Source of the DNA: Bacteroidales bacterium
GTDB taxonomy: Bacteria > Bacteroidota > Bacteroidia > Bacteroidales > F082
Assembly: GCA_017466405.1 (NCBI GenBank)
Contig: JAFTUF010000041.1
Location: 10,119-74,118 of the forward strand
DNA: 64,000 bases
Reading direction: 5' to 3'
The notes beneath the pieces are model-generated. The model saw only the letters and a program-made list of their open reading frames with translations. It was not told where the DNA came from and made no database searches. The number at the start of each line of letters is the position of its first letter. Position 1 is the first letter of the stretch. A program made the translations under genes and the position numbers. Below, piece by piece: positions 21,652 to 40,075 of the stretch.

Positions 21652-21660
21652 CTTATTTTG

Positions 21661-22472: not shown

Positions 22473-22544
22473 CAACCCCGCTGGGAATCGAACCCAGATC
22501 TAAGGAACCGGAATCCTTTATTCTATCCGTTGAACTACGGAGCC
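22473..22544 (-). tRNA. tRNA-Arg (anticodon CCG)
   Basis: Reverse complement GGCTCCGTAGTTCAACGGATAGAATAAAGGATTCCGGTTCCTTAGATCTGGGTTCGATTCCCAGCGGGGTTG. Anticodon loop TTCCGGT; T-arm CTGGG TTCGATT CCCAG. The acceptor stem needs three G-U pairs. Confidence 0.75.
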
Positions 22545-22619: not shown

Positions 22620-23960
22620 TTATCTGACAATGTTAATACGTTTTGTTATAATGCCGTTTTCTGTTGTGATACGAACTAAATAAACTCCATCATTGTATTG
22701 AGAAAGGTTGATGATTGCATTGTCATCACCGACATTATTATCATAAACAATTTGTCCTAAAGCATTGATTATAGAGATATGAGTCATGTCTTTAGACTCG
22801 ATATTTAACTGAGCGACTGCAGGATTAGGATAAATCTTTACATCATCGATTTCGTTTTCTTCAACCGAAGTACCATCAATCTTTGCGGTTTGAGGGCAAG
22901 CCATAAAATAATGTTCATAGTCCTTCTCACCTGCATAAACCACTCTCAATGTATATTCGTCGTCGTTTTGAGCCTCATTGTCAATATAAACCTCTTCAGT
23001 AACAAGTTCCGACAAGAGTTCGTCGTTGCGATATAGAACTGCACCAATAACTTCTGTTATCACAGGTTCTTCGTGCATTTCGACGTAAGCACGAATTTGC
23101 CATGTGTAAGCAGGCATTGAGAGCATAGCAAAGTCCATCCATCCGTAGCCTTCATAATAAATCCAGCGACCGTTTGAGTCACCTTGGTCGGCGCAGGCAG
23201 CAGCAGGCTGTTGTCCGTTATAATTCGTAATGACGACCCAAACATTCTGACTTCCGCTTACTTCCACGGATGTACTCAATGCAATTTCCATATAATCTTG
23301 AGAACCTGTTGTTGAAAACTCTTGACTATATAATAAGGTGCCAGGTTCCGAAGAGCCACCTTCATAAATGAAAACCTCGCCGTTGAACGCCTCGCAGTCG
23401 TAGATAGATACCTTTGTGATAGATTGTCCTGCATAATTTGCCACATCTGAAGCAGGAAACATCACAGCCCACTTAAACGACTCGAAGGTAACGCCGTCGA
23501 AAGTGAGACCTACCGGCATAGAGAAATTACCGTCATCATAATGAAGCCAATTGCCTTCTTTAGAATCTTTAGCATCTTTATAAACTGCAGGTAAGGTCCA
23601 ACTAAGGACACCTACATTATTAATCATACCAGCTGTGAAATTTGTAGCCCCGGCGTACAAGTCACAGCTTTTCTTTGTCCATACATAATCAGCACTTTCT
23701 CCTGAGCCATTAGCGAAGACTGGTATAACGGTAGTCTTATATTCCTGTCCGTCAACGAGGTTTTCATGTTGATAGAATAAAGTTGTCAGTTCTTCAGCAA
23801 CCAATTCGCCATCAAGATAAACCTGATACGATGAAGCATCGTTGAGTTCGTCCCACATCGCCCATCCTGTTGGTGAGACATATAAGTTATTGACAGTTTG
23901 TGCATTAAGCGACACCATCGCAAACATACACATAATAATAAAAGTAAATGTTTTTCTCAT
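22620..23960 (-). CDS. secreted protein with type IX secretion (Por) C-terminal sorting domain
   Basis: 446 aa with a signal peptide. C-terminal KIYPNPAVAQLNIES...GVYLVRITTENGIITKRINIVR is a typical T9SS CTD. Confidence 0.85.
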   Translation of the reverse strand: MRKTFTFIIMCMFAMVSLNAQTVNNLYVSPTGWAMWDELNDASSYQVYLDGELVAEELTTLFYQHENLVDGQEYKTTVIPVFANGSGESADYVWTKKSCDLYAGATNFTAGMINNVGVLSWTLPAVYKDAKDSKEGNWLHYDDGNFSMPVGLTFDGVTFESFKWAVMFPASDVANYAGQSITKVSIYDCEAFNGEVFIYEGGSSEPGTLLYSQEFSTTGSQDYMEIALSTSVEVSGSQNVWVVITNYNGQQPAAACADQGDSNGRWIYYEGYGWMDFAMLSMPAYTWQIRAYVEMHEEPVITEVIGAVLYRNDELLSELVTEEVYIDNEAQNDDEYTLRVVYAGEKDYEHYFMACPQTAKIDGTSVEENEIDDVKIYPNPAVAQLNIESKDMTHISIINALGQIVYDNNVGDDNAIINLSQYNDGVYLVRITTENGIITKRINIVR

Positions 23961-25283: not shown

Positions 25284-25321
25284 ATTGTGGGTAGTTGTAT
25301 AGAAAAACAAATCTATGTATT

Positions 25322-26674
25322 ATGGAAAAAAGATTTTTACTTGCTTTTTTGCTCATCATCCTTGCAGCTGGATGTAGCAGAAATCCGTCTCGGCAAAGCA
25401 GTGGTAGAGAAAATGTTGAGACAAAAGAAACACTAGAATTAGTTGAAAAAACGGATGTGGAAAATCCAGTAGTTAAACCCACACTCAAAGTCAAACCTGT
25501 AGTAAATATCTACATTGAGAATTCTGGTAGTATGAATGGATTTATAAATAAAACGTCCGAATATCAGGATGCTATTCAAAATATGGTAGTATGGTTAGAA
25601 TACTATTACGATACCGATAATATCAAACTACATTATATCAACGAGCGTGTCATTCTTAAAGAAAAACCAGTAAGTATACCTTTACCAGACTTTGCACAAC
25701 AAATGCTGTCTCCTGTAGAATTTAAATCAAATGGTAATGGCGCATCAACTAATCTTAATAGTATAATAGCGATGATATTAGATCGTACTGACGATAATAC
25801 AATATCTATATTGTTATCAGATAACATTTATTCTATTTCGGGTTCACAAACAGCACCTGTGTTGTTAGCTGAATGTAAAAATAAAACATTACAGGCTTTC
25901 TTGGGAAAAAGCAAGGAACTGAATATGCAACATCAACAAGCTTTATCCACAACAATCATTCAACTACATTCTCAATTTAGTGGTAATTATTGGGATTATA
26001 AACATCCTACTGGAAAAGCATCTCAACAGTTGAATTGTAAGAGACCTTATTATATGTGTGTTATTGGAGTTAATGATTTGATTTCTGATTTTAACAACAA
26101 ATTTAATGTCAATGAAATGAATGGTTACAGAAACAAATACACATTAACAGACATGGAAGAGTTGAATCCTAAATATGGTGTGCTAGTAAACACATATAAG
26201 ACAGGTAGATTTAGGAAAGTAAATGACACAACAATAAGAGAAGCTTCATTAGATGGACGTAAAAACATTTTTGCCTTGGCGATAGCTGTTGATTTGAGTG
26301 AAATACCTCTGAATGATGATGAAAAATGTGATACACGTTTATTTGAAGCAACAGAAGATTATGATATAGAGGAAATTATAAAGATAGATGATGCAACAAT
26401 ATCTCCAGTTGATATGCAAGTGACCAAGAATTGCACACACATAATAAAGGTTTCTACATCAAATAAAACTATTCCTGGTTTTACATTAAAAATGAAAAGA
26501 TTGTTGCCAAATTGGGTGGAAAATACATCATCTGTAGATGATACAAAAATAGGAACTGATACTGAAGAACAAAAACGGACATTTGGTTTAGCATACTTCG
26601 TCAATGGAATAAAAGAAGCATACGACAAAGGAGCTGATAATTATTTTGAAATTAACATTACAGTAAACAAATAA
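25322..26674 (+). CDS. lipoprotein with vWA-like domain (operon gene 1)
   Basis: Start taken at MEKRFLLAFLLIILAAGC (lipobox LAAGC). VVNIYIENSGSMNGFI resembles the vWA beta1-MIDAS motif DxSGSM with E for D, and ISILLSDNIYS resembles the vWA TDG strand. Confidence 0.6.
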   Translation: MEKRFLLAFLLIILAAGCSRNPSRQSSGRENVETKETLELVEKTDVENPVVKPTLKVKPVVNIYIENSGSMNGFINKTSEYQDAIQNMVVWLEYYYDTDNIKLHYINERVILKEKPVSIPLPDFAQQMLSPVEFKSNGNGASTNLNSIIAMILDRTDDNTISILLSDNIYSISGSQTAPVLLAECKNKTLQAFLGKSKELNMQHQQALSTTIIQLHSQFSGNYWDYKHPTGKASQQLNCKRPYYMCVIGVNDLISDFNNKFNVNEMNGYRNKYTLTDMEELNPKYGVLVNTYKTGRFRKVNDTTIREASLDGRKNIFALAIAVDLSEIPLNDDEKCDTRLFEATEDYDIEEIIKIDDATISPVDMQVTKNCTHIIKVSTSNKTIPGFTLKMKRLLPNWVENTSSVDDTKIGTDTEEQKRTFGLAYFVNGIKEAYDKGADNYFEINITVNK

Positions 26675-26684: not shown

Positions 26685-27110
26685 ATGATACAAGATTTTA
26701 TTGCAAACATTTACGAACTATGGGGAGCCGCTTATTTTGAAGGTTTCTCTGATGATATGTACAATATCAACGCCTATTTACCTATATTTTTATGGATGAT
26801 TATTTCCATAATTGTTGTAAGTGTAACATATTATTACATAATAAATCATTCGAGATTAAATCGGTGGTATTGGTGGGGATTATTTAATTTGGTCACATCG
26901 TTGTTGAATTTTGGGATAGCATGGGGAGCATCTCATGGAAAATTATTGGATTTATATAATAGTCAAAATATGGATTTCCCATATTCTGCGATGATAGAAT
27001 TTTTCCCATTTGCAGTTATCTGCTTTTGCTGGACATTCGTACTATATTTTGTCTTCTCTATGGTTATAAAATGGGGAAGTAAAAACTGTAAACATTCACC
27101 GTTTTTGTAA
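26685..27110 (+). CDS. small integral membrane protein, 3 predicted TM segments (operon gene 2)
   Basis: 141 aa. Hydrophobic stretches YLPIFLWMIISIIVVSVTYYYII, WYWWGLFNLVTSLLNFGIAWGA and FFPFAVICFCWTFVLYFVFSMVI. Confidence 0.7.
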   Translation: MIQDFIANIYELWGAAYFEGFSDDMYNINAYLPIFLWMIISIIVVSVTYYYIINHSRLNRWYWWGLFNLVTSLLNFGIAWGASHGKLLDLYNSQNMDFPYSAMIEFFPFAVICFCWTFVLYFVFSMVIKWGSKNCKHSPFL

Positions 27111-27127: not shown

Positions 27128-28534
27128 ATGAGTAAAGTTTATGTATTTGGAATAGGAGGAACGGGTTCTCGTGTATTGAGATCCTTAACTTTGTTATTAG
27201 CATCAGGTGTTGATTGTGGTAACGACACAATAGTTCCCATAATTATTGATCCAGATGCTTCTGGCGGTGATTTGACAAGAACTGTCTCTCTGATGAGATG
27301 TTATAGTGATATAAGAAAACAACTTGTTTTTGATGGAACAAGTCAAAATGAGTTTTTTAAAACGGAGATAGATCAAGTTGTTCCCGGTTTCCAGTTGCCG
27401 TTAGATAATAAAGTACAAACATTGAAATTTCAAGATTATATGGGAGTAAGTTCTATGACTTCTAATAATCAATGCTTGATGTCAATGTTGTTCTCCGATA
27501 AAAACCTGAGTGCAAATATGAACGTCGGTTTTAAAGGGAATCCAAATATTGGTTCTGTTGTTTTAAATCAGTTTTCTCAATCAGAGGATTTCAAAGCATT
27601 TGCGAACAACTTTCAACAAGGCGATAGAATATTTATTATTAGTTCTATATTTGGAGGAACAGGAGCTAGCGGTTTTCCATTGTTACTTAAAACATTACGT
27701 AGCAATACAAACATTCCAAATTTTGCTTTAATCAACAATGCCATAATAGGTGGAATAACTGTTTTGCCTTATTTTAATGTAAAACAGGATAATAGCAGTG
27801 AAATTGATTCAACCACTTTCATATCAAAAACAAAGTCGGCATTGGCTTATTATGACAAAAATATAAGCGGCAACAATTCTATAGATGCACTATATTATGT
27901 GGCGGATGATATCAATAATGCTTATGATAACCATGAAGGTGGAGGAAATCAAAAGAATGATGCACATATGGTTGAGCTTATTTCAGCCTTAGCTATAATA
28001 GATTTCGTTAATAATATTAACAACAGAATAAATCCAACAATACATAAAGAATTTGGAATTAAAGATTTGCAAAATGGGGCTAATGATGTAATTCTTTCAG
28101 ATTTTGCAAAAGGAACCGAAGATATAATTAAAGATTCTTTGATAAGTATGTTCCTTTTTGCAAAATACAACAATAATTGTTTGGAAAAACAATACGAACA
28201 CCAGCCATGGGCAATAGACAGAAAACTGGATAGAGCGTTCTTTAGAGGCAGTTTCTACAAAAATATAGAAATGATTCAGACTGATTTCTTCGCTTGGTTA
28301 GGGGAATTATCATCTAATAAAAGAAAACTTACCATGTTTGAATTAGGTGATGACTGTGAATTGTTTAAATCAGTTAAAGATTATTCTCCCAAAAAGAGCT
28401 TTGGATTCACAAAAAATTATGCGTTGATTGACAAATGCCTTAATAAACAAGTCCAAAGCGGAACGAATAAGGAACAATTATACATAAACCTATTCTATAG
28501 TGCTTTAAAAGAAGTCGTATCACTAAAATTCTAA
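27128..28534 (+). CDS. tubulin/FtsZ-superfamily-like GTPase (operon gene 3)
   Basis: 468 aa. N-terminal VYVFGIGGTGSRVLRSL matches the FtsZ T1 G-box position. SSIFGGTGASGFPLL is close to the tubulin/FtsZ T4 signature GGGTG(S/T)G. No TM and no FtsZ-type C-terminal tail recognised. Confidence 0.7.
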   Translation: MSKVYVFGIGGTGSRVLRSLTLLLASGVDCGNDTIVPIIIDPDASGGDLTRTVSLMRCYSDIRKQLVFDGTSQNEFFKTEIDQVVPGFQLPLDNKVQTLKFQDYMGVSSMTSNNQCLMSMLFSDKNLSANMNVGFKGNPNIGSVVLNQFSQSEDFKAFANNFQQGDRIFIISSIFGGTGASGFPLLLKTLRSNTNIPNFALINNAIIGGITVLPYFNVKQDNSSEIDSTTFISKTKSALAYYDKNISGNNSIDALYYVADDINNAYDNHEGGGNQKNDAHMVELISALAIIDFVNNINNRINPTIHKEFGIKDLQNGANDVILSDFAKGTEDIIKDSLISMFLFAKYNNNCLEKQYEHQPWAIDRKLDRAFFRGSFYKNIEMIQTDFFAWLGELSSNKRKLTMFELGDDCELFKSVKDYSPKKSFGFTKNYALIDKCLNKQVQSGTNKEQLYINLFYSALKEVVSLKF

Positions 28535-28538: not shown

Positions 28539-31500
28539 ATGTCTAAAGTTTTCAGATTACATCAGGATAATAATACATTGATTGATTGGCAGCAATCACA
28601 ACCATATAGCACCAATGTTATAAATCAGATAAAAGACCCTAATGGAGCTACTTCAAGAAATGAAATCACTTCAATACCATCACCATTCGCAAGAATAGAC
28701 CTGGTAAAAAGTGCGTTTAAAGAAGTGAATATGTTAGGTCTTGACGGTAATACAATTTACCATAAAATGGTGTCAGATAGTTTGGACATTGGGCAAATAT
28801 TCTTTAATTATCCAAAATTTAAGAATCTTGTAAATGTTGTTTTTTGGGATAAGACTAACGATTTACAAGCTTTAAAGCAATCGACAATAACATCTCATAG
28901 AGTTGTTGGAGAAACACTTGAGATGTATATGCAACAAGATGGCAGTACATATAATTTCAATAATATGCAAAGAATATATATGCTGCAATACATTGGACCT
29001 CAATGCAAGATAAATGATATTATTGGTGCGACATCTCCATGCACATTGTTTTTTAGTTCCGCAAATGATTTATCAAGAATCTCAAATTACATATCCTTTG
29101 ATGGTAATGACAAACCATTTGACAACCAATATCAACCTTTATATAAACGTGATATTGAATATGTCAAATATTTATGTGCTTTAAGAGCATCTTATCCAAT
29201 GTTTGCTGTTGAATTTTCAGAAGTCAATGAATATATAAATCTTACAATAAATAAATTAGGACAAGATATAAATAATCAGGGATTTATTAATCAAATTAGC
29301 ACTTTTGATACTAGTACAATAAATAATTATACCAAACTAGTTGTTAATAACAATAACATTGATGTAATAAATGGCATAACATTATGTGAAGTGCCAAAAG
29401 TTCATGTAAAAAGTGATTTTGAGATTAATTCCACGATATTTGCAGGTGAACAAAAGCCGTTAGTTTTACCGGTTGAAAAAGGCAATCAATATTCTTCGTT
29501 GACTTATACATCTACAGTTTGGAATCCAAACAATTCAGCCCCGTATTTTGACGGCAATCCGTTGGCAAGAAGGACTTTGCCTTCCACAAGTGACGCTCAT
29601 CCATATCTCACAATTAGCGATTTCTTAGAAGATAACATCATTAAGATGCCTTATCGTATGAATGAAAAGGATTATTATGATGGTGGCTTTAACGCAATTA
29701 GTGATGAAAATGAATCATATTTATTGCCATTGAAGAAATTATTTTTTGATTTCTTTACGGTCGACGAGTTATTAGGGACTCTTCCTAACGGACAAAAGAT
29801 GTTCGAGTTTAGAAGTAATGCAGGAGGTATTACTGTAATTTTACGAATTCCTATTCAGAAGAACTATTGTGTTGAGTATAAAAGGATTTATTTGAACAAT
29901 AGTATTGCAGATATTTCAAAGAACTTAGGTGGTGTTATAATCAAGAAATTTGGTCTTGGTATTTTGCCACCCGTTAAGACAGATAATGAACTTTCATATT
30001 ACAGAATAGCGTTATTTGATAAAGGTGATAACAATATTACCTTAACACCATGCATGGGAAAAGATTCTGTTGCTGCTATCAATGTTGTTCATACTCCCAA
30101 AACAAATAAAACATCTGGCGTGGAATCATACATCATTGATAAACATTCTTTTGATAGGATTGAAGTATCAGTTGGTTCAAATATGGCAGTTTTGGTTCCT
30201 ATTTTAAGATCTGCGGTTGGAAATAGGAAATTTACTATTGCCATTGACTTTGGAACTACTAACACTCATATAGAGTACAGTAAAGACAATAATCCATCTT
30301 CTTCATTCTATATCAATACAAATGATATTCAAATCTCAAGATTACATATTGATTATACAGACATTGATATTGATACGTCATTCGACAGATATTTTATTCC
30401 TTCTGTAATTGACGGAGTCGAGTATGGTTATCCAATGAGAACTGTTCTTGCCGAAAGCAATTCAATTAGTTATAATAAACCGGTGTATTCAATGGCTCAT
30501 GCTCATGTTCCATTTAAATATGAGAAAGAAGCTTGTTCAAGATATTATTCTATTAAGACTAACTTAAAATGGTCTAACGAAGAAAGGAAAAGGGTTGAAT
30601 TATATATAGAAAATATTGTTATATTGTTAAGGAACAAAGTTTTGTTAAATGATGGAGACTTATCAAAGACCCAAATTAAATGGTTTTACCCGACAAGTAT
30701 GGTGCAGTATCAGATTGATGGACTGAAGAGAATATGGTGTGACCTATACAAAAAATATTTTGGTAGTGATGTTCAGAATGTTATTGGAATTCCAGAATCG
30801 ATAGCACCTTACAAATATTACAAAACTACACAAGGAGCTCAGTCTAGCGTATTAACAATTGATATTGGAGGTGAAACCAGTGATGTATTTGTAGTTGAAG
30901 ATTCAAAAGCAAAAATGATGTCATCTTTCCGTTTTGCGTCAAACGCAATTTTTGGAGATGCATTCGGATATAATTCTGATAATAATGGTTTCGTATTAGG
31001 GTATCTTGATAAATTCAAAACTATACTTAATGATAATGGATTAAACACATTATCAAATGCTCTTGATGATATTGTAGTTCAGAAAAAATCATCTGACATA
31101 GTTGCATTTTTTTATGCTTTATCCAATAATAAAGAGGTCAAGAAGAAGAATATCACAGCATTGGATTTTCAAGATAAATTATCCAATGACGATTGTTTGA
31201 AATATGTGTTTGTGATGTTCTATACTTCCTTGCTGTATTTTATCGCAAAAGAAATGAAATCAAAGGGACTTAGAATGCCATTGACGATAGCTTTTAGCGG
31301 AAACGGTTCAAATTCTATAAAGATTCTCTCCAATGATACTGTAACATTAAAGAAATATGCACAGATGATATTTGAAGATGTGTATGAAGAAAAATATGCA
31401 AAGGGAGAAATGTTAGATGTAATTTGTGAAGAAAACCCTAAAACCGCAACGTGTAAAGGTGGAATTCTAACAAACAACGATGATGTTGACTTTGATACAG

Positions 31501-31868
31501 ATGAATTAAAATACAATTTGTTAGGAATCAATGCTGTTGATACTATTGACAGTTTTAAGTATAGTGATGTTGACAATAATATCATAAATAAGGTTGTAAA
31601 TCAAGTGGAATCGATGATTGACTATGCCTTGTCTCCTGATAAAATCAAATTTTATATAAAATATTTTGGAGTTAATCAAGGTAAGTCAAATTCCATCAGC
31701 GAATTGACAAAAATTAAACTTCATGAATATGCAAAATCAGCATTAGATGCAAGAAAAGAAGAACTCAAAACATGGAATGCTGATGAAACTTGCAGCTTAG
31801 AAGAAACATTGTTCTTCTATCCTATAATCGGTATGTTAAACAATCTTGCAAGAGAAATAACAAAATAA
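28539..31868 (+). CDS. 1109-aa protein: unknown N-terminal half plus C-terminal actin/Hsp70-like (ASKHA) ATPase (operon gene 4)
   Basis: FTIAIDFGTTNTHIEY (phosphate-1, compare DnaK IDLGTTNS), VLTIDIGGETSDVFVV (phosphate-2 DxGGGTxD) and LTIAFSGNGSNSIKIL (adenosine motif). The first 550 aa or so have no recognisable motif. Confidence 0.75.
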   Translation: MSKVFRLHQDNNTLIDWQQSQPYSTNVINQIKDPNGATSRNEITSIPSPFARIDLVKSAFKEVNMLGLDGNTIYHKMVSDSLDIGQIFFNYPKFKNLVNVVFWDKTNDLQALKQSTITSHRVVGETLEMYMQQDGSTYNFNNMQRIYMLQYIGPQCKINDIIGATSPCTLFFSSANDLSRISNYISFDGNDKPFDNQYQPLYKRDIEYVKYLCALRASYPMFAVEFSEVNEYINLTINKLGQDINNQGFINQISTFDTSTINNYTKLVVNNNNIDVINGITLCEVPKVHVKSDFEINSTIFAGEQKPLVLPVEKGNQYSSLTYTSTVWNPNNSAPYFDGNPLARRTLPSTSDAHPYLTISDFLEDNIIKMPYRMNEKDYYDGGFNAISDENESYLLPLKKLFFDFFTVDELLGTLPNGQKMFEFRSNAGGITVILRIPIQKNYCVEYKRIYLNNSIADISKNLGGVIIKKFGLGILPPVKTDNELSYYRIALFDKGDNNITLTPCMGKDSVAAINVVHTPKTNKTSGVESYIIDKHSFDRIEVSVGSNMAVLVPILRSAVGNRKFTIAIDFGTTNTHIEYSKDNNPSSSFYINTNDIQISRLHIDYTDIDIDTSFDRYFIPSVIDGVEYGYPMRTVLAESNSISYNKPVYSMAHAHVPFKYEKEACSRYYSIKTNLKWSNEERKRVELYIENIVILLRNKVLLNDGDLSKTQIKWFYPTSMVQYQIDGLKRIWCDLYKKYFGSDVQNVIGIPESIAPYKYYKTTQGAQSSVLTIDIGGETSDVFVVEDSKAKMMSSFRFASNAIFGDAFGYNSDNNGFVLGYLDKFKTILNDNGLNTLSNALDDIVVQKKSSDIVAFFYALSNNKEVKKKNITALDFQDKLSNDDCLKYVFVMFYTSLLYFIAKEMKSKGLRMPLTIAFSGNGSNSIKILSNDTVTLKKYAQMIFEDVYEEKYAKGEMLDVICEENPKTATCKGGILTNNDDVDFDTDELKYNLLGINAVDTIDSFKYSDVDNNIINKVVNQVESMIDYALSPDKIKFYIKYFGVNQGKSNSISELTKIKLHEYAKSALDARKEELKTWNADETCSLEETLFFYPIIGMLNNLAREITK

Positions 31869-32641
31869 TGAGTATGAGAAAAGTAATAATATGTATGTTG
31901 ATGGTTTTTGTTTCCATAACAACAATATCTTGTGGTAAAATTAGTCGAAAGGATAAAGTAACACATCCTTCGGAACAATTAAAACAAAAATCAAGAAAAT
32001 CAGAGTCTGGTAATAACCATTTCCTATTGTGGAGCGCATTGATTATTTCTTTGTTTGCTAATGCTGGTTATACCTATGTTTTGTATAACAAAACAAAAGA
32101 ACGTACAGAATCTAGATTACAGAGGTTGAGGAATAATGTCGATAAGTTGGAAAATGATTTTATTTTAGAAAAATCACAACAACATGCAAGAGAAACCACT
32201 CGTAATGGCAGTTCTACTCGATACACATTGATAGACGGCGATATAAACTTAATTGTTGACAGAGTACTTGAATGCATAAACATTGACAAAACCCATGAAA
32301 ATACTTATGATGATGTGGGTAAAAATCCACCGCAACCCAAAACGATAAAGAAATTATATGCCGAAGCAGCTAACAAAGATAATGAGTTTTTTAGAAAGGT
32401 TACAGAATATCAAAGTGAAGACACAATTTATGTTTTGTCATTGATAGATGATAACCGTGCTGAATTTGTTATATGTGATAGCGCCAAAAGCACCATTATA
32501 GGTTGTGAGGATTATTTAAGGAATGTTTGCGATATTATAGGTAGCGGACGCAATATTGAAAATTGTGAACCGGGTATCGCCCAAAAAACAAGCGATGGTT
32601 CTTGGAAGGTTATCGAAAAAGCTAATGTAAAATTCGTGTAA
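31868..32641 (+). CDS. membrane/lipoprotein-like protein with coiled-coil segment (operon gene 5)
   Basis: The ATG at 31868 overlaps the TAA of gene 4 (TAATG). MSMRKVIICMLMVFVSITTISC is a signal/lipobox. Second hydrophobic segment FLLWSALIISLFANAGYTYVLY, then a charged helical region. Confidence 0.6.
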   Translation: MSMRKVIICMLMVFVSITTISCGKISRKDKVTHPSEQLKQKSRKSESGNNHFLLWSALIISLFANAGYTYVLYNKTKERTESRLQRLRNNVDKLENDFILEKSQQHARETTRNGSSTRYTLIDGDINLIVDRVLECINIDKTHENTYDDVGKNPPQPKTIKKLYAEAANKDNEFFRKVTEYQSEDTIYVLSLIDDNRAEFVICDSAKSTIIGCEDYLRNVCDIIGSGRNIENCEPGIAQKTSDGSWKVIEKANVKFV

Positions 32642-32642: not shown

Positions 32643-34379
32643 ATGGGACACTATTTAATAATAGGAATCATCGTTTTGCTAATTATTGGAGTTCAGATAT
32701 ACTTCTTTAGCAAAACATCAAAAGAGATAAGAAAATTCTCTAACATTTTTCCTAAATCAACAGACAACTTGTATGCTCATGATTCGGAAATTTATGTAAG
32801 AGATTATGAAAATAAGATAGATTACGATATAGATGATAAACTTGATAAATATATCAAGAAACATGATTCAGTTTTTGAAAGAATAATATCGAGCTTAAAT
32901 ACTTATTTGCGAAAAAATAAAGGCGCTGCAAGCGACTATCATCTTATGAAAGATATAGTTGAAAGAAACTGTGATGCCAAAGAAAATGAAATAGATACTC
33001 AAATTCCGACTCCATTATATACAGGTTTGATGGGAACTGTTTTAGGAATCATTGTCGGTGTTGCATTCTTACTTTTTAGTGGTGGATTGTCAGCTTTGTT
33101 GGATAGCAATTATGATTTGATCAATAGCACAACAAATGTAAATGAGATTGTAGGCAGAGAATCTGCACAAGATATTAAAGATGAACATATAATCATCATT
33201 AAAGAAGGTGAATTGATAGATTCTGAACATAAAGCTAGCAAATTGATTGATTATGCGAAGAGAAATAATACCGAAATAAAATTAAAGTCAGATAATTCTG
33301 GAAGTAAAGGTGTTTCAGCTTTATTGAGTGGTATTGCATTAGCAATGATAGCTAGTTTTGTTGGGATTTTGCTTACTACAATAGCGTCATATCGTTTTAA
33401 AGGAGCAAAAAGCAAGGAAGAAGAAGGCAAAGATAAATTCTTAAGTTGGATTCAATCGGAATTGTTGCCGCAATTATCATCCGATGTTTCAGGTACCCTC
33501 GTGAAAATGGGGCAGAATCTCAGAGATTTTAACACTACATTCTCTGAAAATACAAAAGAACTCAGTGCAACATTAGACAAGGTAAATGAATCGTACAGAG
33601 GTCAAGCTGAAGTACTTCAGTCAATAAAAGAATTGAGAATAAATGAAATAGCCACTGCAAACATCACTATTTATGATAAGTTAAAAGATAGTACTCAAGA
33701 ATTAGGAGATGTAACACAACATATTTCAGAATATTCAGAGCAGTTGTCAAAACTTGGAAAGTATCTAAAGAATTCTGAAAAATATCTGATTCAAGTTAAA
33801 GAACTTAACGAGAAACTTGATGAAGGTGAAGAAAGAATGAAAATGATAGAACGACTTGGACAATTCTTTGAGACTGAATTACAACAAATTCAAAATAGAA
33901 AGTCGGAAATGACAAAGGCTGTCGGTATTGTTGATGATGCATTACAAGAAGCTTTAATAAAGATGCAGGAAAATGTCGGCAGACAATTCAATGAACTTGA
34001 AAAATCATCTGCTATACAACAAGACATTCTGCAAGAAAAACTTAAAGAAACGACTGCACTTGTTGATGAACTGAAAAATCTCACAGCAGTTAAAGCAAGT
34101 TTGGATAAAATTGAGAAATCAACTGAAAAAACATCGAATGAGCAAAATAAACGTTTGGACACACTTATATCATCAATAAATATATTAACGTCTGAAATCA
34201 AGAAAGGTAATTCTGTAAATATAGGATTTAATAGCGGTGGTGCTCCCGTAGTAACTAAAAAAATGCCTAAATGGGCAAAAGTGCTGTTAATAATAGGCGG
34301 CTCTTTAGTAAGTCTTACTTGCTTGATAATAATATCTGTTATAGTTCTAAAAGTCCTAAAAGATATAAATATTATTTAA
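32643..34379 (+). CDS. MotA/TolQ/ExbB-like ion-channel protein with long coiled-coil tail and C-terminal TM anchor (ZorA-like; operon gene 6)
   Basis: 578 aa. PLYTGLMGTVLGIIVGVAF and GIALAMIASFVGILLTTIASY resemble the two conserved MotA/ExbB helices (GLLGTVxG; A-x-x-T-T-x-x-G). About 270 aa of heptad-rich sequence follow, then MPKWAKVLLIIGGSLVSLTCLIIISVIVL. Confidence 0.65.
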   Translation: MGHYLIIGIIVLLIIGVQIYFFSKTSKEIRKFSNIFPKSTDNLYAHDSEIYVRDYENKIDYDIDDKLDKYIKKHDSVFERIISSLNTYLRKNKGAASDYHLMKDIVERNCDAKENEIDTQIPTPLYTGLMGTVLGIIVGVAFLLFSGGLSALLDSNYDLINSTTNVNEIVGRESAQDIKDEHIIIIKEGELIDSEHKASKLIDYAKRNNTEIKLKSDNSGSKGVSALLSGIALAMIASFVGILLTTIASYRFKGAKSKEEEGKDKFLSWIQSELLPQLSSDVSGTLVKMGQNLRDFNTTFSENTKELSATLDKVNESYRGQAEVLQSIKELRINEIATANITIYDKLKDSTQELGDVTQHISEYSEQLSKLGKYLKNSEKYLIQVKELNEKLDEGEERMKMIERLGQFFETELQQIQNRKSEMTKAVGIVDDALQEALIKMQENVGRQFNELEKSSAIQQDILQEKLKETTALVDELKNLTAVKASLDKIEKSTEKTSNEQNKRLDTLISSINILTSEIKKGNSVNIGFNSGGAPVVTKKMPKWAKVLLIIGGSLVSLTCLIIISVIVLKVLKDINII

Positions 34380-34380: not shown

Positions 34381-35058
34381 ATGAAAAAGAATAAAAAAGA
34401 ATCATTCTTTTGGACAAGCTATTCAGATTTGATGACCAGTATGTTTTTTATAATGCTGGTGTTGTTTGTTGTTACAGTAGCCTTGCTTCACAAGGAAATG
34501 GTCAAGATTGGTGAGGAAAGAGAGGCAATGCGTATTGAGAGAGATATTACGCAGGCACAACTTGATAAGATAAAAGAAATTCAGGAGGCAACACAAACCA
34601 TTGATACCACATACTTTAGATTCGATAAAAATTTTAATAGACATACGTTGAGAAACATAACAGTCTCTTTTAATAGATCTAGTTCTAACATAAACGACAT
34701 TCCTCAAGATGTTAGGAATACTTTAGCCGAAGCAGGAAAAGCAATAAGAGAATCTTTGTTAGAAGCACAAAATAAAACTCCGGAAGCAAAATTTTTACTG
34801 ATAATTGAAGGTCAAACATCAAACGATGGTTATGTTGCTAATTACGAGCTCAGTTATAGCAGAGCCCTAAGTCTTGTGAAATTCTGGTCAAGTCAAAAGA
34901 TTTATTTTGACGAAGCAGGTGGTATACATAATTGTGAAGTTATTATTTCAGGTAGCGGAAGGTCTAGTCAATTTAGAGAATTGCCTGATAACAAATATAA
35001 TACTAAAAATCAAAGATTTGTAATTCATATCATTCCAAAGCCGGGAGAAATAAAATGA
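34381..35058 (+). CDS. MotB/OmpA-like stator partner (ZorB-like; operon gene 7)
   Basis: 225 aa. N-terminal FWTSYSDLMTSMFFIMLVLFVV is the MotB-type TM plug with the conserved Asp. C-terminal LLIIEGQTSNDGYVANYELSYSRALSLVKFW is an OmpA-like peptidoglycan-binding motif. Confidence 0.78.
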   Translation: MKKNKKESFFWTSYSDLMTSMFFIMLVLFVVTVALLHKEMVKIGEEREAMRIERDITQAQLDKIKEIQEATQTIDTTYFRFDKNFNRHTLRNITVSFNRSSSNINDIPQDVRNTLAEAGKAIRESLLEAQNKTPEAKFLLIIEGQTSNDGYVANYELSYSRALSLVKFWSSQKIYFDEAGGIHNCEVIISGSGRSSQFRELPDNKYNTKNQRFVIHIIPKPGEIK

Positions 35059-35810
35059 TAAAGAAACTGATATTATGCATTTGCGTACTAGTGCTTTTCT
35101 TTTCTTGTGTAAGAAGACGAGAAGGAGTACATAACTCCAATTCAAGAAATCATTATGCTCAAGAACGAGTTAGAACAAGTAGTAATAGACACAAACCGGT
35201 GAGAACACAAGAAACCAGTCCGATTCAACCTGTAAATAGGGCGGATAACAAAATATTAAATGGTTCTCAGATATTTGAAAAATACAACCCTGCAGTTTTT
35301 ATGATTTTTACTTCTGACGGGTGGAACGATTATCAAGGTTCTGGCTTCTTTGTCACGTCATCTGGAATTGGTGTTAGCAATTATCATGTTTTTGAAGGTA
35401 CGACAGTCGGGTATGAAACAATTAAATTATCAAATGGACAAACATATAAAATAAGAAATGTCATCGCTAAGAGTAAAGATGATGATTTCATTGTGTTTCA
35501 GGTAGAATCTAAAGGAGTTTCGTTTAAATATATACCTATGGGAATAAAGAATCCAAAAGTAGGCGAAAAAGTCTATACAATAGGCAGTCCGTTAGGTTTG
35601 GAAAACACATTCTCGTCAGGAGAAATTTCACAGTTGAGAGAGGATAATTTAATTCAAATCAATGCTCCTATAGATCATGGCAGTAGTGGTGGTGCACTTA
35701 TAAATGAATATGGAGAAGTCATTGGCATTACTACAGCAGGCATAGGAAGTTCAGGAGCAAACCTAAATTTTGCAGTTGATATTGATGTTGTGAGACCGTA
35801 TGTGAGATGA
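35055..35810 (+). CDS. lipoprotein trypsin-like (S1/DegP-fold) serine protease (operon gene 8)
   Basis: ATGA overlap with gene 7. Lipobox LVLFFSC. Catalytic triad context SNYHVFEG (His), DDDFIVFQV (Asp) and DHGSSGGALIN (Ser). Confidence 0.82.
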   Translation: MIKKLILCICVLVLFFSCVRRREGVHNSNSRNHYAQERVRTSSNRHKPVRTQETSPIQPVNRADNKILNGSQIFEKYNPAVFMIFTSDGWNDYQGSGFFVTSSGIGVSNYHVFEGTTVGYETIKLSNGQTYKIRNVIAKSKDDDFIVFQVESKGVSFKYIPMGIKNPKVGEKVYTIGSPLGLENTFSSGEISQLREDNLIQINAPIDHGSSGGALINEYGEVIGITTAGIGSSGANLNFAVDIDVVRPYVR

Positions 35811-35880: not shown

Positions 35881-36261
35881 ATGAAAACATTTCTCAAAAT
35901 ATTAGCATTCGCTATCTCTATCCCATTGTTTATTTCGGCAACTCCAATAGATTCACAAGATACTGAGACTTACACTATCTATAAAATTTATGAAAAGATT
36001 GAACTCGACAATGGTTCAAAAGTCATTGATAGTTGGGGCAATGTCGAAGATGCAAAAGCCGTTTTGGTTCCAACTGAAATAGACCGCGGAAGATATAGTA
36101 TCGAAATTACACGCATCAGCAGTAACTTGTATCAGATATGCGGAACATCGCTCTATATTGAAACAAAATACTGCTATGAATACGCTACGAGAGAAGAGGT
36201 GCTTTTAAACATCACATCTACTTTCGGATATGACCTCGGAGAAGTGATTTTCTTTGATTGA
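35881..36261 (+). CDS. small secreted protein, unknown function (operon gene 9)
   Basis: 126 aa with signal peptide MKTFLKILAFAISIPLFISA. No motif recognised. It lies 70 nt after gene 8. Confidence 0.55.
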   Translation: MKTFLKILAFAISIPLFISATPIDSQDTETYTIYKIYEKIELDNGSKVIDSWGNVEDAKAVLVPTEIDRGRYSIEITRISSNLYQICGTSLYIETKYCYEYATREEVLLNITSTFGYDLGEVIFFD

Positions 36262-36443: not shown

Positions 36444-36842
36444 GGTGGAGCTGGAGGGAGTCGAACCCTCGTCCAAACAAGGAACACCCATGCTTTCTAC
36501 ATGCTTATTTTGTTGTTGTTTTTCGAATCATGCAAGGAAACAAACACCCTAAACATAACCTTATCTCCTAAACTTCGCTATGCGGCCGGAGCTTCCGCAT
36601 CGCTATCCCGAAATTGATGAGCACCTCGTACCCGGACCGGAATCAGGAAAGTCCATCCGCGAGATGTCCCGTTCATCCACCTTGTGGACGAATTAAGCTT
36701 CAATCTACTGTGCTTCGATTAAGCAGCGAGAGCGTAGTTATTTTCGCCAATTAATTTTTCGCAGCCAAGATTTATGAGCTTCACTGCAAGGCTCAGCATG
36801 CTTACATGACCATTCTACAAGCTGTCAAAACCGGTCAACCCC
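36444..36842 (-). ncRNA. ssrA: tmRNA
   Basis: The reverse complement starts GGGGTTGACCGGTTTTGACAGC and ends GGACGAGGGTTCGACTCCCTCCAGCTCCACC. G3-U70 in the acceptor stem. Tag reading frame GGCGAAAATAACTACGCTCTCGCTGCTTAA encodes GENNYALAA*. Confidence 0.95.
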
Positions 36843-37141: not shown

Positions 37142-38305
37142 CTAATTCATTAGCGGCTGCACATATTTCCTCACATCGTCTCCACCGATTTTGTTTCCGC
37201 ATAAAATTACAAGTCTTTCTATGACATTATGCAGTTCGCGGATGTTACCTGTCCAGCGATATTTTTGCAGTTCTTCTATCGCATCTTGTGTAAAGACAGG
37301 GACTTGTTTTCCCATCTCTGATGAAATATTCTCGACAAAATAATTTATCAACTCTGGAATGTCGTCCAACCTATCGCGTAACGGCGGCACATTGATAATT
37401 ATCACACTCAGACGATGATATAGGTCTTCCCTGAAGTTACCTTTCTGTATCTCTTCTTTGAGATTCTTATTCGTGGCAGCTATGATTCTCACATTGACAT
37501 TTATCTCGCTCTCTCCTCCTACCCTCGTTATCTTGTTTTCTTGTAATGCTCTCAACACCTTAGCCTGAGCCGAGAGACTCATATCGCCTATCTCATCTAA
37601 AAACAGAGTCCCGTTATTGGCGAGTTCAAAGTCGCCTTTTTTCATCTTAATCGCTGAAGTGAACGAGCCTTTCTCATGACCAAACAACTGACTTTCTATC
37701 AACTCCGATGGTATCGCAGCACAGTTAACTTCTATGAAAGGTGCGTAGGAACGATTGCTCATCTCATGAAGACGACGTGCAACGAGTTCTTTTCCAGTGC
37801 CATTCTCGCCTTCTATAAGAACTCTGGCATTCGTCGGCGCTACCTTATCTATAATATCTAGAACCTCATTCATCGCAGCAGAACTTCCAATCATCTCATA
37901 CTTGCGACTGACGACTTTCTTCAAGGCTTTCGTCTCCGACATAAGTTTTGATTTGTCGAGAGCATTACGCAAAGTAATGAGCATTCTGTTTAAATCCGGC
38001 GGTTTAGAAATATAATCGAAGGCACCTTTTTTTATTGCCTCAACGGCGGTCTCTATAGTGCCATGACCAGAAATCATTATTATCGGTGCTTCGCTAATCT
38101 TCTTTGCTTCCTCAAGAAACTCTATGCCGTCCATCTGAGGCATTTTGATGTCGCACAATATCGCATCATATTCATTTTCTTTTACTAAAGGAAGTGCTTC
38201 AATAGCAGATGAAGCGTCATCAACTTGATATTGTTCGTGTTCTAAAATCTCACGCAGTATGCGTCGGATAGCAGCTTCGTCGTCAATTACTAAAATCTTT
38301 GCCAT
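37142..38305 (-). CDS. sigma-54-dependent response regulator (REC + AAA+), apparently lacking a C-terminal HTH
   Basis: REC domain ILVIDDE...DIKMP. Walker A GENGTGKEL, GAFTGA-variant GSFTSA, and FREDLYHRL. The protein ends about 20 aa after the AAA+ module. ATG at 38305; the track start at 38311 is a TTG. Confidence 0.85.
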   Translation of the reverse strand: MAKILVIDDEAAIRRILREILEHEQYQVDDASSAIEALPLVKENEYDAILCDIKMPQMDGIEFLEEAKKISEAPIIMISGHGTIETAVEAIKKGAFDYISKPPDLNRMLITLRNALDKSKLMSETKALKKVVSRKYEMIGSSAAMNEVLDIIDKVAPTNARVLIEGENGTGKELVARRLHEMSNRSYAPFIEVNCAAIPSELIESQLFGHEKGSFTSAIKMKKGDFELANNGTLFLDEIGDMSLSAQAKVLRALQENKITRVGGESEINVNVRIIAATNKNLKEEIQKGNFREDLYHRLSVIIINVPPLRDRLDDIPELINYFVENISSEMGKQVPVFTQDAIEELQKYRWTGNIRELHNVIERLVILCGNKIGGDDVRKYVQPLMN

Positions 38306-38307
38306 AA

Positions 38308-38745
38308 TCAATATTTTGGAGTGAGACGCATTTTCTTTGACTTGTAATTAATAATAGCCTGATATTTCTTCATCAAGTCGCCGCCAAGGACACCGTCGAT
38401 AGGTGGAAGTTTTATCATAGCGTACGAATTGTTGATATTCGACAAATCCATTGCTACAGCCTGATAATTATTTATCTTTAAATCACCAAAACTTAATTCT
38501 TTTATGGTGAATATAAAACTTGAAATATCAGTTCCACCTATTCCAGCAGAGAGTCCTTCTTTCTCGGAAAACTCGGTATCATCAGCAAACGTCAATATTC
38601 TTTCTTTGTCGAAGACAGTCCTCGAAGCTCCGGTATCTACGACAAAACGAGCTTTCTTATTATTTATCAGACCTTCCGCAACGAGATGAAATCCATCACC
38701 CTCGATGTTTATAATATTAATAGGTATTTCTATGTAGCGACGCAT
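38308..38745 (-). CDS. retropepsin-like (clan AA) aspartic protease
   Basis: FVVDTGASRTVF (D-T-G-A) and GVLGGDLM. ATG at 38745; the track start is a TTG. Confidence 0.75.
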   Translation of the reverse strand: MRRYIEIPINIINIEGDGFHLVAEGLINNKKARFVVDTGASRTVFDKERILTFADDTEFSEKEGLSAGIGGTDISSFIFTIKELSFGDLKINNYQAVAMDLSNINNSYAMIKLPPIDGVLGGDLMKKYQAIINYKSKKMRLTPKY

Positions 38746-38748
38746 AAA

Positions 38749-38861: not shown

Positions 38862-39569
38862 TTAAAAGTTCGGTTTCAAGGCATATTTATGATAGAACTC
38901 TTCTATTATCGCGACGGCTTCTTCCACAGTGTCAACGACATGGAAAATATCAAAATCGCTTTCGCTTACCATTCCTTCTTCGAGCAGGGTGTTTTTAAAC
39001 CAGTCGTTGATAGGTTGCCAATATTCCTTTCCGACCATGATAATAGGGAAAGATACGAGTTTGTGAGTCTGTATCAACGTTATAGCTTCGAAGAGTTCGT
39101 CCAATGTACCGAAGCCTCCAGGGAACGCGATGAATCCTTGGGCGTAGCGCATAAACATAGTCTTTCTTACATAGAAGAAGTCGAAGTTGATGCTTTTATC
39201 GGCGTCGATGAAGTCGTTAGGACGTTGTTCATGAGGAAGGACAATGTTGAGACCTACGCTTTTTCCGCCTCCAAAGTGAGCTCCTTTATTACCGGCTTCC
39301 ATAATTCCAGGACCGCCGCCGGTGATGATACCGAAGCCTTTTTTCACCAAGAGGTATGCGGTCTCTTCTGCCATCTTATAATATTTATTGTCTGGTTTTG
39401 TACGTGCCGAACCAAATATCGCCACGCAAGGTCCTATCTTAGAGAGAGTTTCATAACCAGTGACAAATTCTGACATTATTTTAAACACTGACCATGAGTC
39501 TTGCGACTTGATTTCTGTCCAGTTCTTTTCTTCAAAAGCTTCTCTTATTTTAGATTCGTCGATGTTCAT
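38862..39569 (-). CDS. LOG/TIGR00730-family Rossmann protein (nucleotide 5'-monophosphate nucleosidase-like)
   Basis: GGGPGIMEA and PGGFGTLDEL motifs. Confidence 0.88.
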   Translation of the reverse strand: MNIDESKIREAFEEKNWTEIKSQDSWSVFKIMSEFVTGYETLSKIGPCVAIFGSARTKPDNKYYKMAEETAYLLVKKGFGIITGGGPGIMEAGNKGAHFGGGKSVGLNIVLPHEQRPNDFIDADKSINFDFFYVRKTMFMRYAQGFIAFPGGFGTLDELFEAITLIQTHKLVSFPIIMVGKEYWQPINDWFKNTLLEEGMVSESDFDIFHVVDTVEEAVAIIEEFYHKYALKPNF

Positions 39570-39637: not shown

Positions 39638-40075
39638 TTAAAATTGTTTTATGGCACGACATTCCTTCGCATTATAAACAGCAATGCTAAGATAAGAATT
39701 ATAATCTTTAGTGTTTTGAGTAAAAAAGGCCCCACATTTTAATTTGTTTGCGAGAACATATTGAATATTATCCTCCATATCATCTTCTTCCATAAGCATC
39801 GATCTGTTGATATCATCTTTGGTAAAATCAATAATATCAACCTTAGCAAGGATATTACCTACATAATCTTTTATCTGATTCTTGTTTATTTTATGATGCT
39901 GAAAAATAGATACAAATTGAGCAATACTCAAAGAAGAGACATAAATCTTTTTACCAATTAATGATGTAAGATAATTCCAGCATCTTCTTTCATCTTCATA
40001 CTTTTTATCATTCGAGTATGCTCCTACTAGTATATTGGTATCAATAAAAATATGGTTTTGGTTCGATTTCATCAT
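39638..40075 (-). CDS. PIN-domain protein (VapC-like toxin)
   Basis: 145 aa. N-terminal IFIDTNILV with the acidic Asp, and later acidic residues (MEEDDMEDN). ATGA overlap with the upstream small ORF. Confidence 0.7.
   Translation of the reverse strand: MMKSNQNHIFIDTNILVGAYSNDKKYEDERRCWNYLTSLIGKKIYVSSLSIAQFVSIFQHHKINKNQIKDYVGNILAKVDIIDFTKDDINRSMLMEEDDMEDNIQYVLANKLKCGAFFTQNTKDYNSYLSIAVYNAKECRAIKQF

Follow-up and report, generated by a model that had tools for sequence, protein, structure and literature searches.

A predicted actin-like ATPase with a large N-terminal region is encoded beside a short tubulin-like GTPase in a conserved gene core of Bacteroidales and other bacteria

We analysed a stretch of 64,000 nucleotides (nt) from a Bacteroidales bacterium (GenBank assembly GCA_017466405.1, contig JAFTUF010000041.1, positions 10,119 to 74,118 of the forward strand), hereafter the window, whose own numbering is used throughout, with a focus on g4, a gene for a giant protein of 1109 amino acids (aa). 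The C-terminal half of the g4 product is predicted to adopt the two-lobed, duplicated RNase-H-like fold of ASKHA ATPases, and sequence comparisons place this ATPase nearer to MreB, FtsA and actin than to Hsp70. About 370 residues of its N-terminal half (residues 48-420) appear, in structural models, to form a new fold with two near-invariant motifs. g4 is the last member of a conserved core of four genes, which encode a lipoprotein with a vWA-type motif, a small transmembrane protein, a short tubulin-like GTPase and the giant ASKHA protein. Functional coupling of g4 to the tubulin-like gene is strongly supported by their conserved adjacency and tight spacing. We found no description of the g4 family or of the four-gene core in the literature searched; searches for work that pairs Zorya/ZorAB or anti-phage defence with tubulin-like or actin-like proteins, and for follow-ups of the FtsZl1 proteins, did not return the module. 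Our preferred reading, to which we assign a probability of about 45%, is that the module would be a machine for conflict or defence that spans the envelope and is gated by nucleotides, with the giant behaving toward the tubulin-like GTPase in an FtsA-like manner.

The open reading frame of g4 has the position and length given in the preliminary description of this DNA, which was also right about its tight borders. The upstream gene, g3, stops at 28534 and the ATG of g4 lies at 28539, leaving a gap of 4 nt, and the g4 stop codon (TAA, 31866-31868) overlaps the ATG of g5 at 31868 by one base (TAATG). The database entry identical to g4 is a hypothetical protein of a Bacteroidales metagenome-assembled genome. 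Single-sequence searches of Pfam, NCBIfam, PADLOC and PDB returned nothing significant for g4; information on its fold came only from family profiles and structure prediction. An AlphaFold2 model built on an alignment of 109 full-length homologues had a mean predicted local distance difference test score (pLDDT) of 88.8 and a predicted template-modelling score of 0.78, with pLDDT below 50 at residues 1-35 and 41-47 only. No segment of g4 or of g3 passed the transmembrane threshold in hydropathy analysis, in line with the earlier view that the N-terminal half of g4 lacks such a segment. The protein is made up as follows:

28539..31868, + strand: g4, ATG start, 1109 aa, predicted cytoplasmic; N-terminal scaffold, immunoglobulin (Ig)-like domain, actin-like ASKHA ATPase and helical C-terminal segment
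28668..28703, + strand: TSIPSPFARIDL, residues 44-55, the top-conserved 12-mer in g4
28680..29798, + strand: N-terminal region without detectable relative, residues 48-420 (alpha/beta at 48-270, irregular at 271-420)
29019-29057: second signature motif IIGATSPCTLFFS, residues 161-173
29799..30218, + strand: beta-rich Ig-like sandwich domain(s), residues 421-560, all-beta secondary structure
30219..31493, + strand: predicted ASKHA (actin/MreB/FtsA-like) ATPase domain, residues 561-985, from Foldseek, family profiles and Pfam scans
30231-30278: Phosphate 1, FTIAIDFGTTNTHIEY, residues 565-580
30795-30809: Connect 1, E753-S-x-A-P757, residues 753-757
30849-30896: Phosphate 2, VLTIDIGGETSDVFVV, residues 771-786
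31281-31316: Adenosine, LTIAFSGNGSNS, residues 915-926
31434-31469: Connect 2, P967-K-x-x-T-C-K-G-G975, residues 966-977
31494..31865, + strand: helical C-terminal segment, residues 986-1109, with helices at 1013-1108 in the model

The Phosphate 1, Phosphate 2 and Adenosine motifs, which had been noticed at the outset, occur in the right order in the C-terminal half, and with the two Connect motifs they complete a set of five that is invariant or nearly so among the 109 aligned homologues (D570FGTTNT, E753SxAP757, D775xGGxTxD782, F919SGNG923 and P967KxxTCKGG975). Residues D570, G572, E753, D775, G777, D782 and G921 are invariant even in cross-phylum alignments, at an overall identity of ~16-18%, and therefore the three motifs first noticed are no chance matches. 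On the strength of these nucleotide-site residues, conserved across phyla, g4 is predicted to be competent to bind ATP. A Foldseek search of PDB with the g4 model gave 194 matches at E<=1e-3, the best 50 of which are all MreB, actin/Arp or Hsp70 nucleotide-binding domains, with E between 8e-9 and 1e-6 and probability 1.00; MreB leads the list (E 7.8e-9, target TM-score 0.52-0.56). Motifs, structure prediction and fold search together bear out the proposed arrangement of an ASKHA ATPase C-terminal to a large N-terminal region, and the two-lobed core is present in the predicted structure.

The earlier label of an actin/Hsp70-like ATPase is better supported in its actin part than in its Hsp70 part. 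Cross-phylum family profiles searched against PDB matched 8r2n ('actin family protein') at 5.2e-7, MreB at 1.3e-6 and FtsA (7q6f) at 9e-5, with MamK also among their matches. When 42 diverse family members were scanned singly, Pfam FtsA was matched by 19 and MreB_Mbl by 18 (best E ~2e-6), as against none for Pfam HSP70 at E<=0.01. MreB and the other bacterial actins (MamK, ParM-like) resemble g4 in giving the best Foldseek (8e-9) and leading profile (1.3e-6) matches and in sharing the five ASKHA motifs. They differ from it in that identity is 10-13%, that significant sequence similarity is confined to Phosphate 2, and that g4 carries a large helical insertion at residues ~800-910 of the AlphaFold2 model and a C-terminal extension of 124 aa.

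The same comparisons bear on an alternative in which g4 is a chaperone or remodeller of the Hsp70 type, whose N-terminal and Ig-like region would bind a client and whose ATP cycles would remodel the g3 polymer or the vWA protein, by analogy with the MoxR-vWA and HSP70 themes of GTPase-centric conflict systems. Such systems do include both HSP70 and tubulin themes (PMC7159879), Hsp70 nucleotide-binding domains are among the Foldseek matches, Hsc70 was the first profile match (E 0.023) with an earlier, narrower profile, and in Dyadobacter, in Chlorobium and at the metagenomic locus L095 the core is followed by a genuine HSP70 gene. However, with the broad cross-phylum profiles Hsp70 chains reach only E 0.05-0.7 against 1e-6 for MreB, and the model has no Hsp70-type substrate-binding domain past the ATPase, where ~124 helical residues stand instead. 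Pfam searches found no DnaJ or GrpE among the operon proteins, and the separate, true HSP70 at some loci suggests that this role is not filled by g4. We regard an Hsp70-type role for g4 as decidedly unlikely.

The remaining core genes lie directly upstream of g4 in the window:

25295..26674, + strand: g1, first core gene, a lipoprotein of 459 aa with lipobox LAAGC and a vWA-type motif (ENSGSM) resembling a metal ion-dependent adhesion site (MIDAS)
26685..27110, + strand: g2, second core gene, a small membrane protein of 141 aa with 2-3 transmembrane segments by hydropathy
27128..28534, + strand: g3, third core gene, a short tubulin/FtsZ-like GTPase of 468 aa, directly upstream of g4

Core genes elsewhere encode, in this order, a lipoprotein of ~430 aa, a transmembrane protein of ~155 aa, a tubulin-like protein of ~500 aa and a giant of ~1100 aa, and the order is kept in cyanobacterial plasmids and chromosomes, a Dyadobacter genome, a Chlorobium metagenome-assembled genome and metagenomic contigs. 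At 83 related loci, BLAST detected g3 at 81, g1 at 76 and g2 at 67, together with the downstream genes g6 at 71 and g7 at 69; missing partners mostly coincide with contig ends. A gene of the same size occupies the g2 position in cyanobacteria, Dyadobacter and Chlorobium. The motif [DE]xS[GSA]SM is present in 72 of 76 g1 homologues, reading DGSGSM in the one from Synechocystis, and profile searches of Pfam and PDB with g1 gave no vWA match.

The assignment of g3 draws on the whole family. The copy in the window matches Pfam Tubulin at 4.2e-5 and Tubulin_2 at 2.1e-4, below the gathering score (24.3 vs 33 bits), and both Pfam families are matched by 38 of 39 g3 family members (best 3.5e-8). The tubulin signature FGGTGASG is invariant in the g3 alignment, GGTG[AS]SG is found in 76 of 81 homologues, and comparison with PDB 3zid, a tubulin/FtsZ GTPase, gave E 0.02. 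Relatives of g3 are 444-541 aa long. An hhalign comparison of g3 with the cyanobacterial protein that NCBI names 'tubulin-like domain-containing protein' gave a probability of 99.9% (E 1.5e-33), and by sequence the cyanobacterial tubulin-like core gene qualifies as an ortholog of g3.

In the complete loci examined, from Bacteroidales, Cytophagales, Chlorobium and cyanobacteria, g3 and g4 are neighbours, and the gap between them in Bacteroidota has a median of 5 nt and is at most 20 nt in 74 of 78 cases. On a Synechocystis chromosome (L094), a gene of the Uma2 endonuclease family (8408-8968) stands between the tubulin-like gene and the giant, and therefore tight g3-g4 coupling is not universal. 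The preliminary description had held that the pairing of an actin/Hsp70 fold with a tubulin fold in one operon is rare. The coupling is upheld by adjacency and spacing; the rarity is not, given that ftsA and ftsZ are as a rule neighbours in the division clusters of bacteria, and what sets the g3/g4 pair apart is that it forms a distinct family.

The FtsA-FtsZ pair offers an instructive comparison. As there, an ASKHA gene adjoins a gene for a GTPase of the tubulin/FtsZ superfamily, both products are cytoplasmic within a membrane-linked gene set, and the ASKHA domain of g4 matches FtsA in profile (PDB 7q6f) and Pfam searches, with the values given above. Unlike in division clusters, the gene order here is reversed, g4 has ~560 extra N-terminal residues without a counterpart in FtsA, and g3 is divergent, short and below the Pfam gathering score. 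Because its distribution is patchy and island-borne, we do not regard the module as division machinery.

The g4 family is large. A word-indexed search returned 2,597 homologues, the best 120 of which are unnamed proteins that align over ~100% of the query length with 42-83% identity. A HMMER scan of 1.84 billion representatives of clusters at 50% identity with the cross-phylum g4 profile gave 3,658 clusters at E<=1e-3, 2,890 at E<=1e-10 and 1,892 at E<=1e-30; almost all of the best 150 of the 3,658 match the profile from end to end in one piece and are 1078-1309 aa long, the few others being shorter entries that appear to be truncated. These data bear on the idea that the long reading frame is an artefact of a frameshift or assembly join, or else a degenerate pseudo-ATPase, to which we give a probability close to nil. 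Since relatives are full length among the best 120 of the 2,597 homologues, at about 80 loci in genomes and, as single end-to-end matches, in almost all of the top 150 clusters, g4 is not a frameshift fusion, and the split into two genes in related genomes that had been considered at the outset was not seen there. Catalytic-site residues that are invariant across phyla speak against a pseudo-ATPase.

In GTDB contigs, with one genome per species, g4 is carried by 258 of 185,579 species, nearly all of them Bacteroidales or Bacteroidota. Among the carriers are Parabacteroides distasonis An897, Bacteroides muris and Prevotella jejuni DSM 26989, all cultured bacteria of the gut or mouth, and distant clades are found on Picosynechococcus and Gloeothece plasmids, on Synechocystis chromosomes, and in Snowella, Dyadobacter, Pedobacter and Chlorobium. 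One member of the cyanobacterial clade (P0154, 1418 aa) is a g4 homologue fused to a Ser/Thr protein kinase domain. The presence of some homologues on cyanobacterial plasmids, and of the operon on 8 IMG/VR contigs, would suit a device by which a mobile element is segregated or maintained, with g3 and g4 acting like the partition NTPases TubZ or ParM. Most copies are chromosomal, however, no centromere-binding adaptor gene was recognised in the Pfam results, no match to g4 was found among 50,697 GenBank phage records, and obligatory lipoprotein and transmembrane partners and a stator are unfit for a partition system. A partition role is accordingly very improbable in our judgement.

The N-terminal half was examined with a separate AlphaFold2 model of the first 562 residues, built from truncated database proteins (pLDDT 82). 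Foldseek searches of PDB and of the viral database BFVD with this model gave no match with E<1e-3. Its only recurrent matches were Ig-fold domains of ~95 residues, such as beta-2-microglobulin, which align with residues 421-560 at a TM-score of 0.6 and a probability of 0.99-1.0, yet with E of just 0.01-0.07. The earlier statement that the N-terminal ~550 residues hold no recognisable motif is thus sustained for residues 48-420, which have no relative in PDB or BFVD, and is amended for the last ~140 residues, which are Ig-like instead.

Two short motifs dominate the conservation of this half. The first, TSIPSPFARIDL, has a column conservation of 0.97 in Bacteroidota and is among the top four conserved windows across phyla; it lies partly within the segment that the AlphaFold2 model fails to place. 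S45 and P47 within it are invariant across phyla, and its SIPSPF motif is kept as IHSIPSPWAR in Picosynechococcus. The second, IIGATSPCTLFF (residues 161-172), comes third in the conservation ranking, with one phosphate loop above it and the other below; 78 of 80 homologues have GATSP, and the motif is also conserved across phyla, with cyanobacterial homologues of ~17% overall identity keeping it as LGMTSPATL. SIPSPF and GATSPxT match the ATP-binding loops in degree of conservation.

The preliminary description had asked whether the N-terminal half is a sensor, peptide-binding or nuclease-like fold. Modelling and Foldseek gave only the Ig-like matches, with no sensor or peptide-binding fold among those from PDB and BFVD. 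The nuclease reading is unlikely: no such fold was matched, and in the cross-phylum alignment no acidic, His or Cys residue of this half is conserved across phyla. Because no such residue is conserved, the two motifs would be an interface rather than a hydrolytic active site; their conservation pattern favours an interaction surface. At the other end of the protein, the C-terminal segment closes with a conserved helix (EETLFFYPxVGxLNxLAR) and is otherwise the least conserved part of g4.

Downstream of g4, the operon continues with genes for envelope proteins and an exported hydrolase:

31868..32641, + strand: g5, a fast-evolving lipoprotein or membrane protein of 257 aa with lipobox TTISCGK, its start overlapping the g4 stop
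32643..34379, + strand: g6, a MotA/ExbB/ZorA-like protein of 578 aa with three N-terminal transmembrane helices, a coiled coil of ~300 aa and a C-terminal transmembrane helix
34381..35058, + strand: g7, a MotB/ZorB-like protein of 225 aa with a conserved transmembrane aspartate and an OmpA-like peptidoglycan-binding motif
35055..35810, + strand: g8, a predicted exported trypsin-like serine protease lipoprotein of 251 aa (Pfam Trypsin_2, 6.3e-22), at the variable operon position
35881..36261, + strand: g9, a small secreted protein of 126 aa after g8

In most Bacteroidales the core is likewise followed by the fast-evolving g5, the MotA-like g6, the MotB-like g7 and one hydrolase. BLAST detected g5 at 25 of the 83 loci, and the gene at that position encodes 196-664 aa. 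Together, g6 and g7 encode a ZorA/ZorB-like stator. The g6 product matches Pfam MotA_ExbB at 1.1e-3 and, weakly, PADLOC ZorA2 at 1.3e-5 (homologues down to 3.3e-7); the MotA/ExbB signature GLxGTxxG is present in all 71 homologues, and a transmembrane helix at or near the C-terminus was seen in nearly all of 35. Matches of the g6 profile in PDB were swamped by coiled-coil noise. The g7 product matches PADLOC ZorB1 at 5.9e-15 and NCBIfam ZorB1 at 2.2e-8; since its 33.8 bits are far under the NCBIfam cut-off of 400, it is not a ZorB1 equivalog. Among g7 homologues, the Y[SA]DLMT motif around the transmembrane aspartate is kept in 65 of 69 and the OmpA-like N..LS..RA in 61 of 69.

The position after g7 is filled by six enzyme classes in all: trypsin-like proteases at more than 25 loci, Endonuclease_NS at 10, retropepsin-like aspartyl proteases at 10, transglutaminase-like proteins at 3, and SNase or Peptidase_C92 elsewhere. 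The representatives inspected mostly have signal or lipoprotein leaders. Two of them, the trypsin-like protein of L003 (16710-17447) and the SNase of L012 (22600-23181), have a similar leader, C-E-R-K-S-G-R-K/R, just past the lipobox cysteine, a likeness that hints at a shared targeting or adaptor segment before swapped catalytic domains. g9 occurs only in close relatives and at one other locus and probably lies outside the conserved system. Median identity is 26% for g1, 40% for g4, 43% for g7 and 48% for g3, and g5 is mostly undetectable; by this measure the envelope-exposed components, g1 and g5, evolve fastest.

The genes downstream of the core vary outside this common arrangement. In cyanobacteria the core is followed by coiled-coil proteins and no hydrolase, and an hhalign comparison detected no homology between them and the MotA-like profile, which places the stator outside the core. 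The Bacteroidales locus L081 also lacks g6 and g7, with two small genes only and then a tRNA, as does L010, which has a different downstream set. Because the giant/tubulin pair thus occurs without any MotA-like gene, the coiled-coil tail of g6 is a secondary candidate as partner of g4. The Draconibacterium locus L012 (13456-23181) holds an expanded operon in which two genes separate g4 from the MotA-like gene, five more (120, 584, 324, 200 and 177 aa) separate the MotA-like from the MotB-like gene, and the SNase-type nuclease comes last. At L003 the operon is followed by an FHA protein and by three kinases that carry FGE-sulfatase domains. The bona fide HSP70 genes that stand after the core (~485-536 aa) were located at L095 (9271-10881), L097 (13579-15120) and L098 (14775-16232), and Dyadobacter has CHAT and caspase-like (C14) peptidases nearby as well.

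Conflict or defence is the most likely reading of the module because of its variable terminal enzyme, with enzymes swapped at one position, its patchy, island-like spread over 258 of 185,579 species, and its Zorya-type motor. In the mechanism that we propose, the fast-evolving periplasmic g1 and g5 would, with the stator, sense a disturbance of the envelope, and the signal would pass the membrane via g2 and the g6 tail. On the cytoplasmic side, g3 and g4 would form a GTP- and ATP-dependent assembly at the inner membrane, where g4 may bind g3, organise it at the membrane and set the threshold, as FtsA does for FtsZ, with SIPSPF and GATSPxT as a putative partner interface. The g6/g7 stator could be proton-driven, by analogy with ZorAB, and as the output the exported protease or nuclease would be deployed or activated. 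A bolder version is an undescribed two-cytoskeleton machine in which g3 and g4 co-assemble under the inner membrane, joined to a periplasmic vWA-type sensor and, in gut Bacteroidales, to a Zorya-like proton motor, and provide immunity at the envelope by releasing periplasmic proteases or nucleases against phage or competitors, with residues 48-420 as a new fold whose motifs do the coupling; this full picture we hold to be quite doubtful.

The Zorya anti-phage system (Hu et al. 2024, PMC11946911) provides the motor part of the analogy. Published work describes ZorA5B2 as a motor driven by protons, with a tail that recruits ZorC and ZorD. The ZorB1 match of g7 (5.9e-15), its transmembrane aspartate and its OmpA-like motif, together with the MotA/ExbB-like character, long coiled coil and weak ZorA matches of g6, resemble this arrangement. 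However, the g6 tail ends in a transmembrane helix and the ZorA tail is described as reaching into the cytoplasm, the partners here are tubulin-like and actin-like NTPases and exported hydrolases, and the core also occurs without a stator. PADLOC found no ZorC, ZorD, ZorE, ZorF or ZorG among the operon proteins. The g6 tail would be membrane-anchored at both ends.

Several observations weigh against the reading of the module as a conflict or defence machine. PADLOC has no model for the core genes, and it would be unusual for an anti-phage response inside the cell to have hydrolases exported as lipoproteins for its effectors. Since the core occurs without stator or hydrolase in cyanobacteria and at L081, immunity inferred from ZorAB may not extend to the core. 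Polymerisation and the FtsA-like role of g4 are drawn by analogy, sequence similarity of g4 to MreB and FtsA is mostly limited to the Phosphate 2 region, and the motif of g1 is the only basis for its vWA assignment. Finally, only about 1 in 10 flanking genes matches a defence model.

In the main alternative reading, the module would be a housekeeping or accessory apparatus for membrane remodelling, vesiculation or export, in which g3 and g4 would shape or constrict the inner membrane and the stator would energise the process. The lipoprotein hydrolase would then be cargo for the periplasm, the surface or vesicles and would serve nutrition or interbacterial competition, not immunity. All accessory products bear export signals, and cyanobacteria retain the core together with coiled-coil partners but without a hydrolase. 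MotAB-type stators typically energise envelope processes, which counts for such an apparatus too. Remodelling is also the published prediction for the closest analogue, the FtsZl1-vWA-OmpA operons (PMC2875224). The patchy, island-like distribution with variable genomic flanks, the exchange of enzyme classes at one operon position, and the ZorB models that are the nearest profile relatives of g7 in PADLOC and NCBIfam all speak against remodelling, which we consider a possible but unlikely account.

FtsZl1-vWA-MotB operons are the closest published analogue, without the giant. FtsZl1 operons combine vWA, FtsZl1 and OmpA/MotB genes with unknown families and were predicted to act in membrane remodelling (Makarova and Koonin 2010, PMC2875224); the one in Anabaena encodes Ava_1847 (vWA), Ava_1848 (FtsZl1, 1085 aa), Ava_1849 (membrane protein, 524 aa) and Ava_1850 (MotB type, 215 aa). 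They resemble the g4 module in bringing together a vWA-type protein, a divergent tubulin-like GTPase, a membrane protein of ~520 aa and a MotB-family protein of ~215 aa (PMC2875224); here, g3 matches Pfam Tubulin_2, g7 is MotB-like, and g1 has the MIDAS-type motif, without a vWA profile match. They differ in that FtsZl1 proteins have 760-1200 aa (763-1208 aa in published examples) with a coiled coil and a helical C-terminal domain, against 468 aa for g3 and 444-541 aa for its relatives, and in that the associated families A1-A2 and B1-B9 were never described as actin-like or as ATPases (PMC2875224). Identity of the g4 module with the published Bacteroides caccae FtsZl1 operon was ruled out: that operon has an FtsZl1 of 913 aa and a cysteine protease.

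GTPase-centric conflict systems form a second point of reference. These are defined by DO-GTPases and GAP1, are described from Firmicutes and Actinobacteria, and have tubulin and HSP70 themes that are said not to overlap (Kaur et al. 2020, PMC7159879). Their constant NTPase core, vWA proteins and variable effectors, and the role of tubulin and HSP70 proteins as assembling components, resemble the present module, whereas no MotAB-type stator is mentioned for them (PMC7159879). Membership of the module in the DO-GTPase/GAP1 (DO-GTPase/GAP1-N2) systems is ruled out, the defining GTPase and GAP1 being absent; Pfam and NCBIfam searches gave no match to a P-loop GTPase in the nine operon proteins. 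We class the g4 module as a variant of the predicted tubulin-like/vWA/MotB membrane systems and of NTPase-gated conflict systems.

If the reading of the module as a conflict or defence machine is right, bacteria would have a second, non-division use of an actin-fold/tubulin-fold pair, and the Zorya-type motor would gain a new set of partners, making ZorAB-like stators reusable signal transducers. The 2010 prediction of membrane remodelling by FtsZl1/vWA/MotB systems would become testable in a tractable host. The family is large (~1,900 clusters at E<=1e-30), rigid in architecture and present in cultured gut and oral bacteria.

The operon is co-directional and sits in an island of low guanine-cytosine (GC) content, with GC of 0.31-0.33 between positions 24 and 36 kb against ~0.39 in the flanks. 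RNA genes mark its surroundings:

21660-21735: tRNA-Val
22472-22544: tRNA-Arg, the other border of the island
36444..36842, - strand: transfer-messenger RNA (tmRNA) gene found by ARAGORN, with tag GENNYALAA, bounding the island directly after the operon

The same tmRNA adjacency is found at L004 and L005, which are closely related to the window, and, independently, at the distantly related L072, and several other loci adjoin tRNA genes; this pattern suggests that the operon was inserted repeatedly next to ssrA. The flanks of 54 loci are heterogeneous, with 177 Pfam families among 137 proteins, including 5 tyrosine integrases. Defence-type matches in the flanks comprise 5 PDC-S01-type ATPases, 3 MkoA-like proteins, 3 mad6-like proteins and 3 PD-T4-6-type kinases, and as a defence signal these genes are only suggestive.

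Further genes near the island in the window are:

22620..23960, - strand: protein that carries a C-terminal sorting domain for type IX secretion, shortly upstream of the island
37142..38311, - strand: sigma-54 response regulator, its start overlapped by the next gene
38308-38751, - strand: retropepsin-like aspartyl protease
38862..39569, - strand: LOG/SLOG-family ('lysine decarboxylase-like') protein
39638..40075, - strand: PIN-domain protein
40622..41707, - strand: DUF2027/Smr protein
41864..42643, + strand: EcoRV-family restriction endonuclease (Pfam 1e-106)

The EcoRV endonuclease and the PIN protein lie 3-6 kb from the operon, and a toxin-like or defence-associated nature is possible for the PIN-domain and DUF2027/Smr genes. 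SLOG domains are found in conflict systems based on nucleotide signalling. The retropepsin-like protease belongs to the same family as the enzymes that fill the hydrolase position at ~10 other loci. The type IX sorting domain upstream of the island is consistent with a Bacteroidota host.

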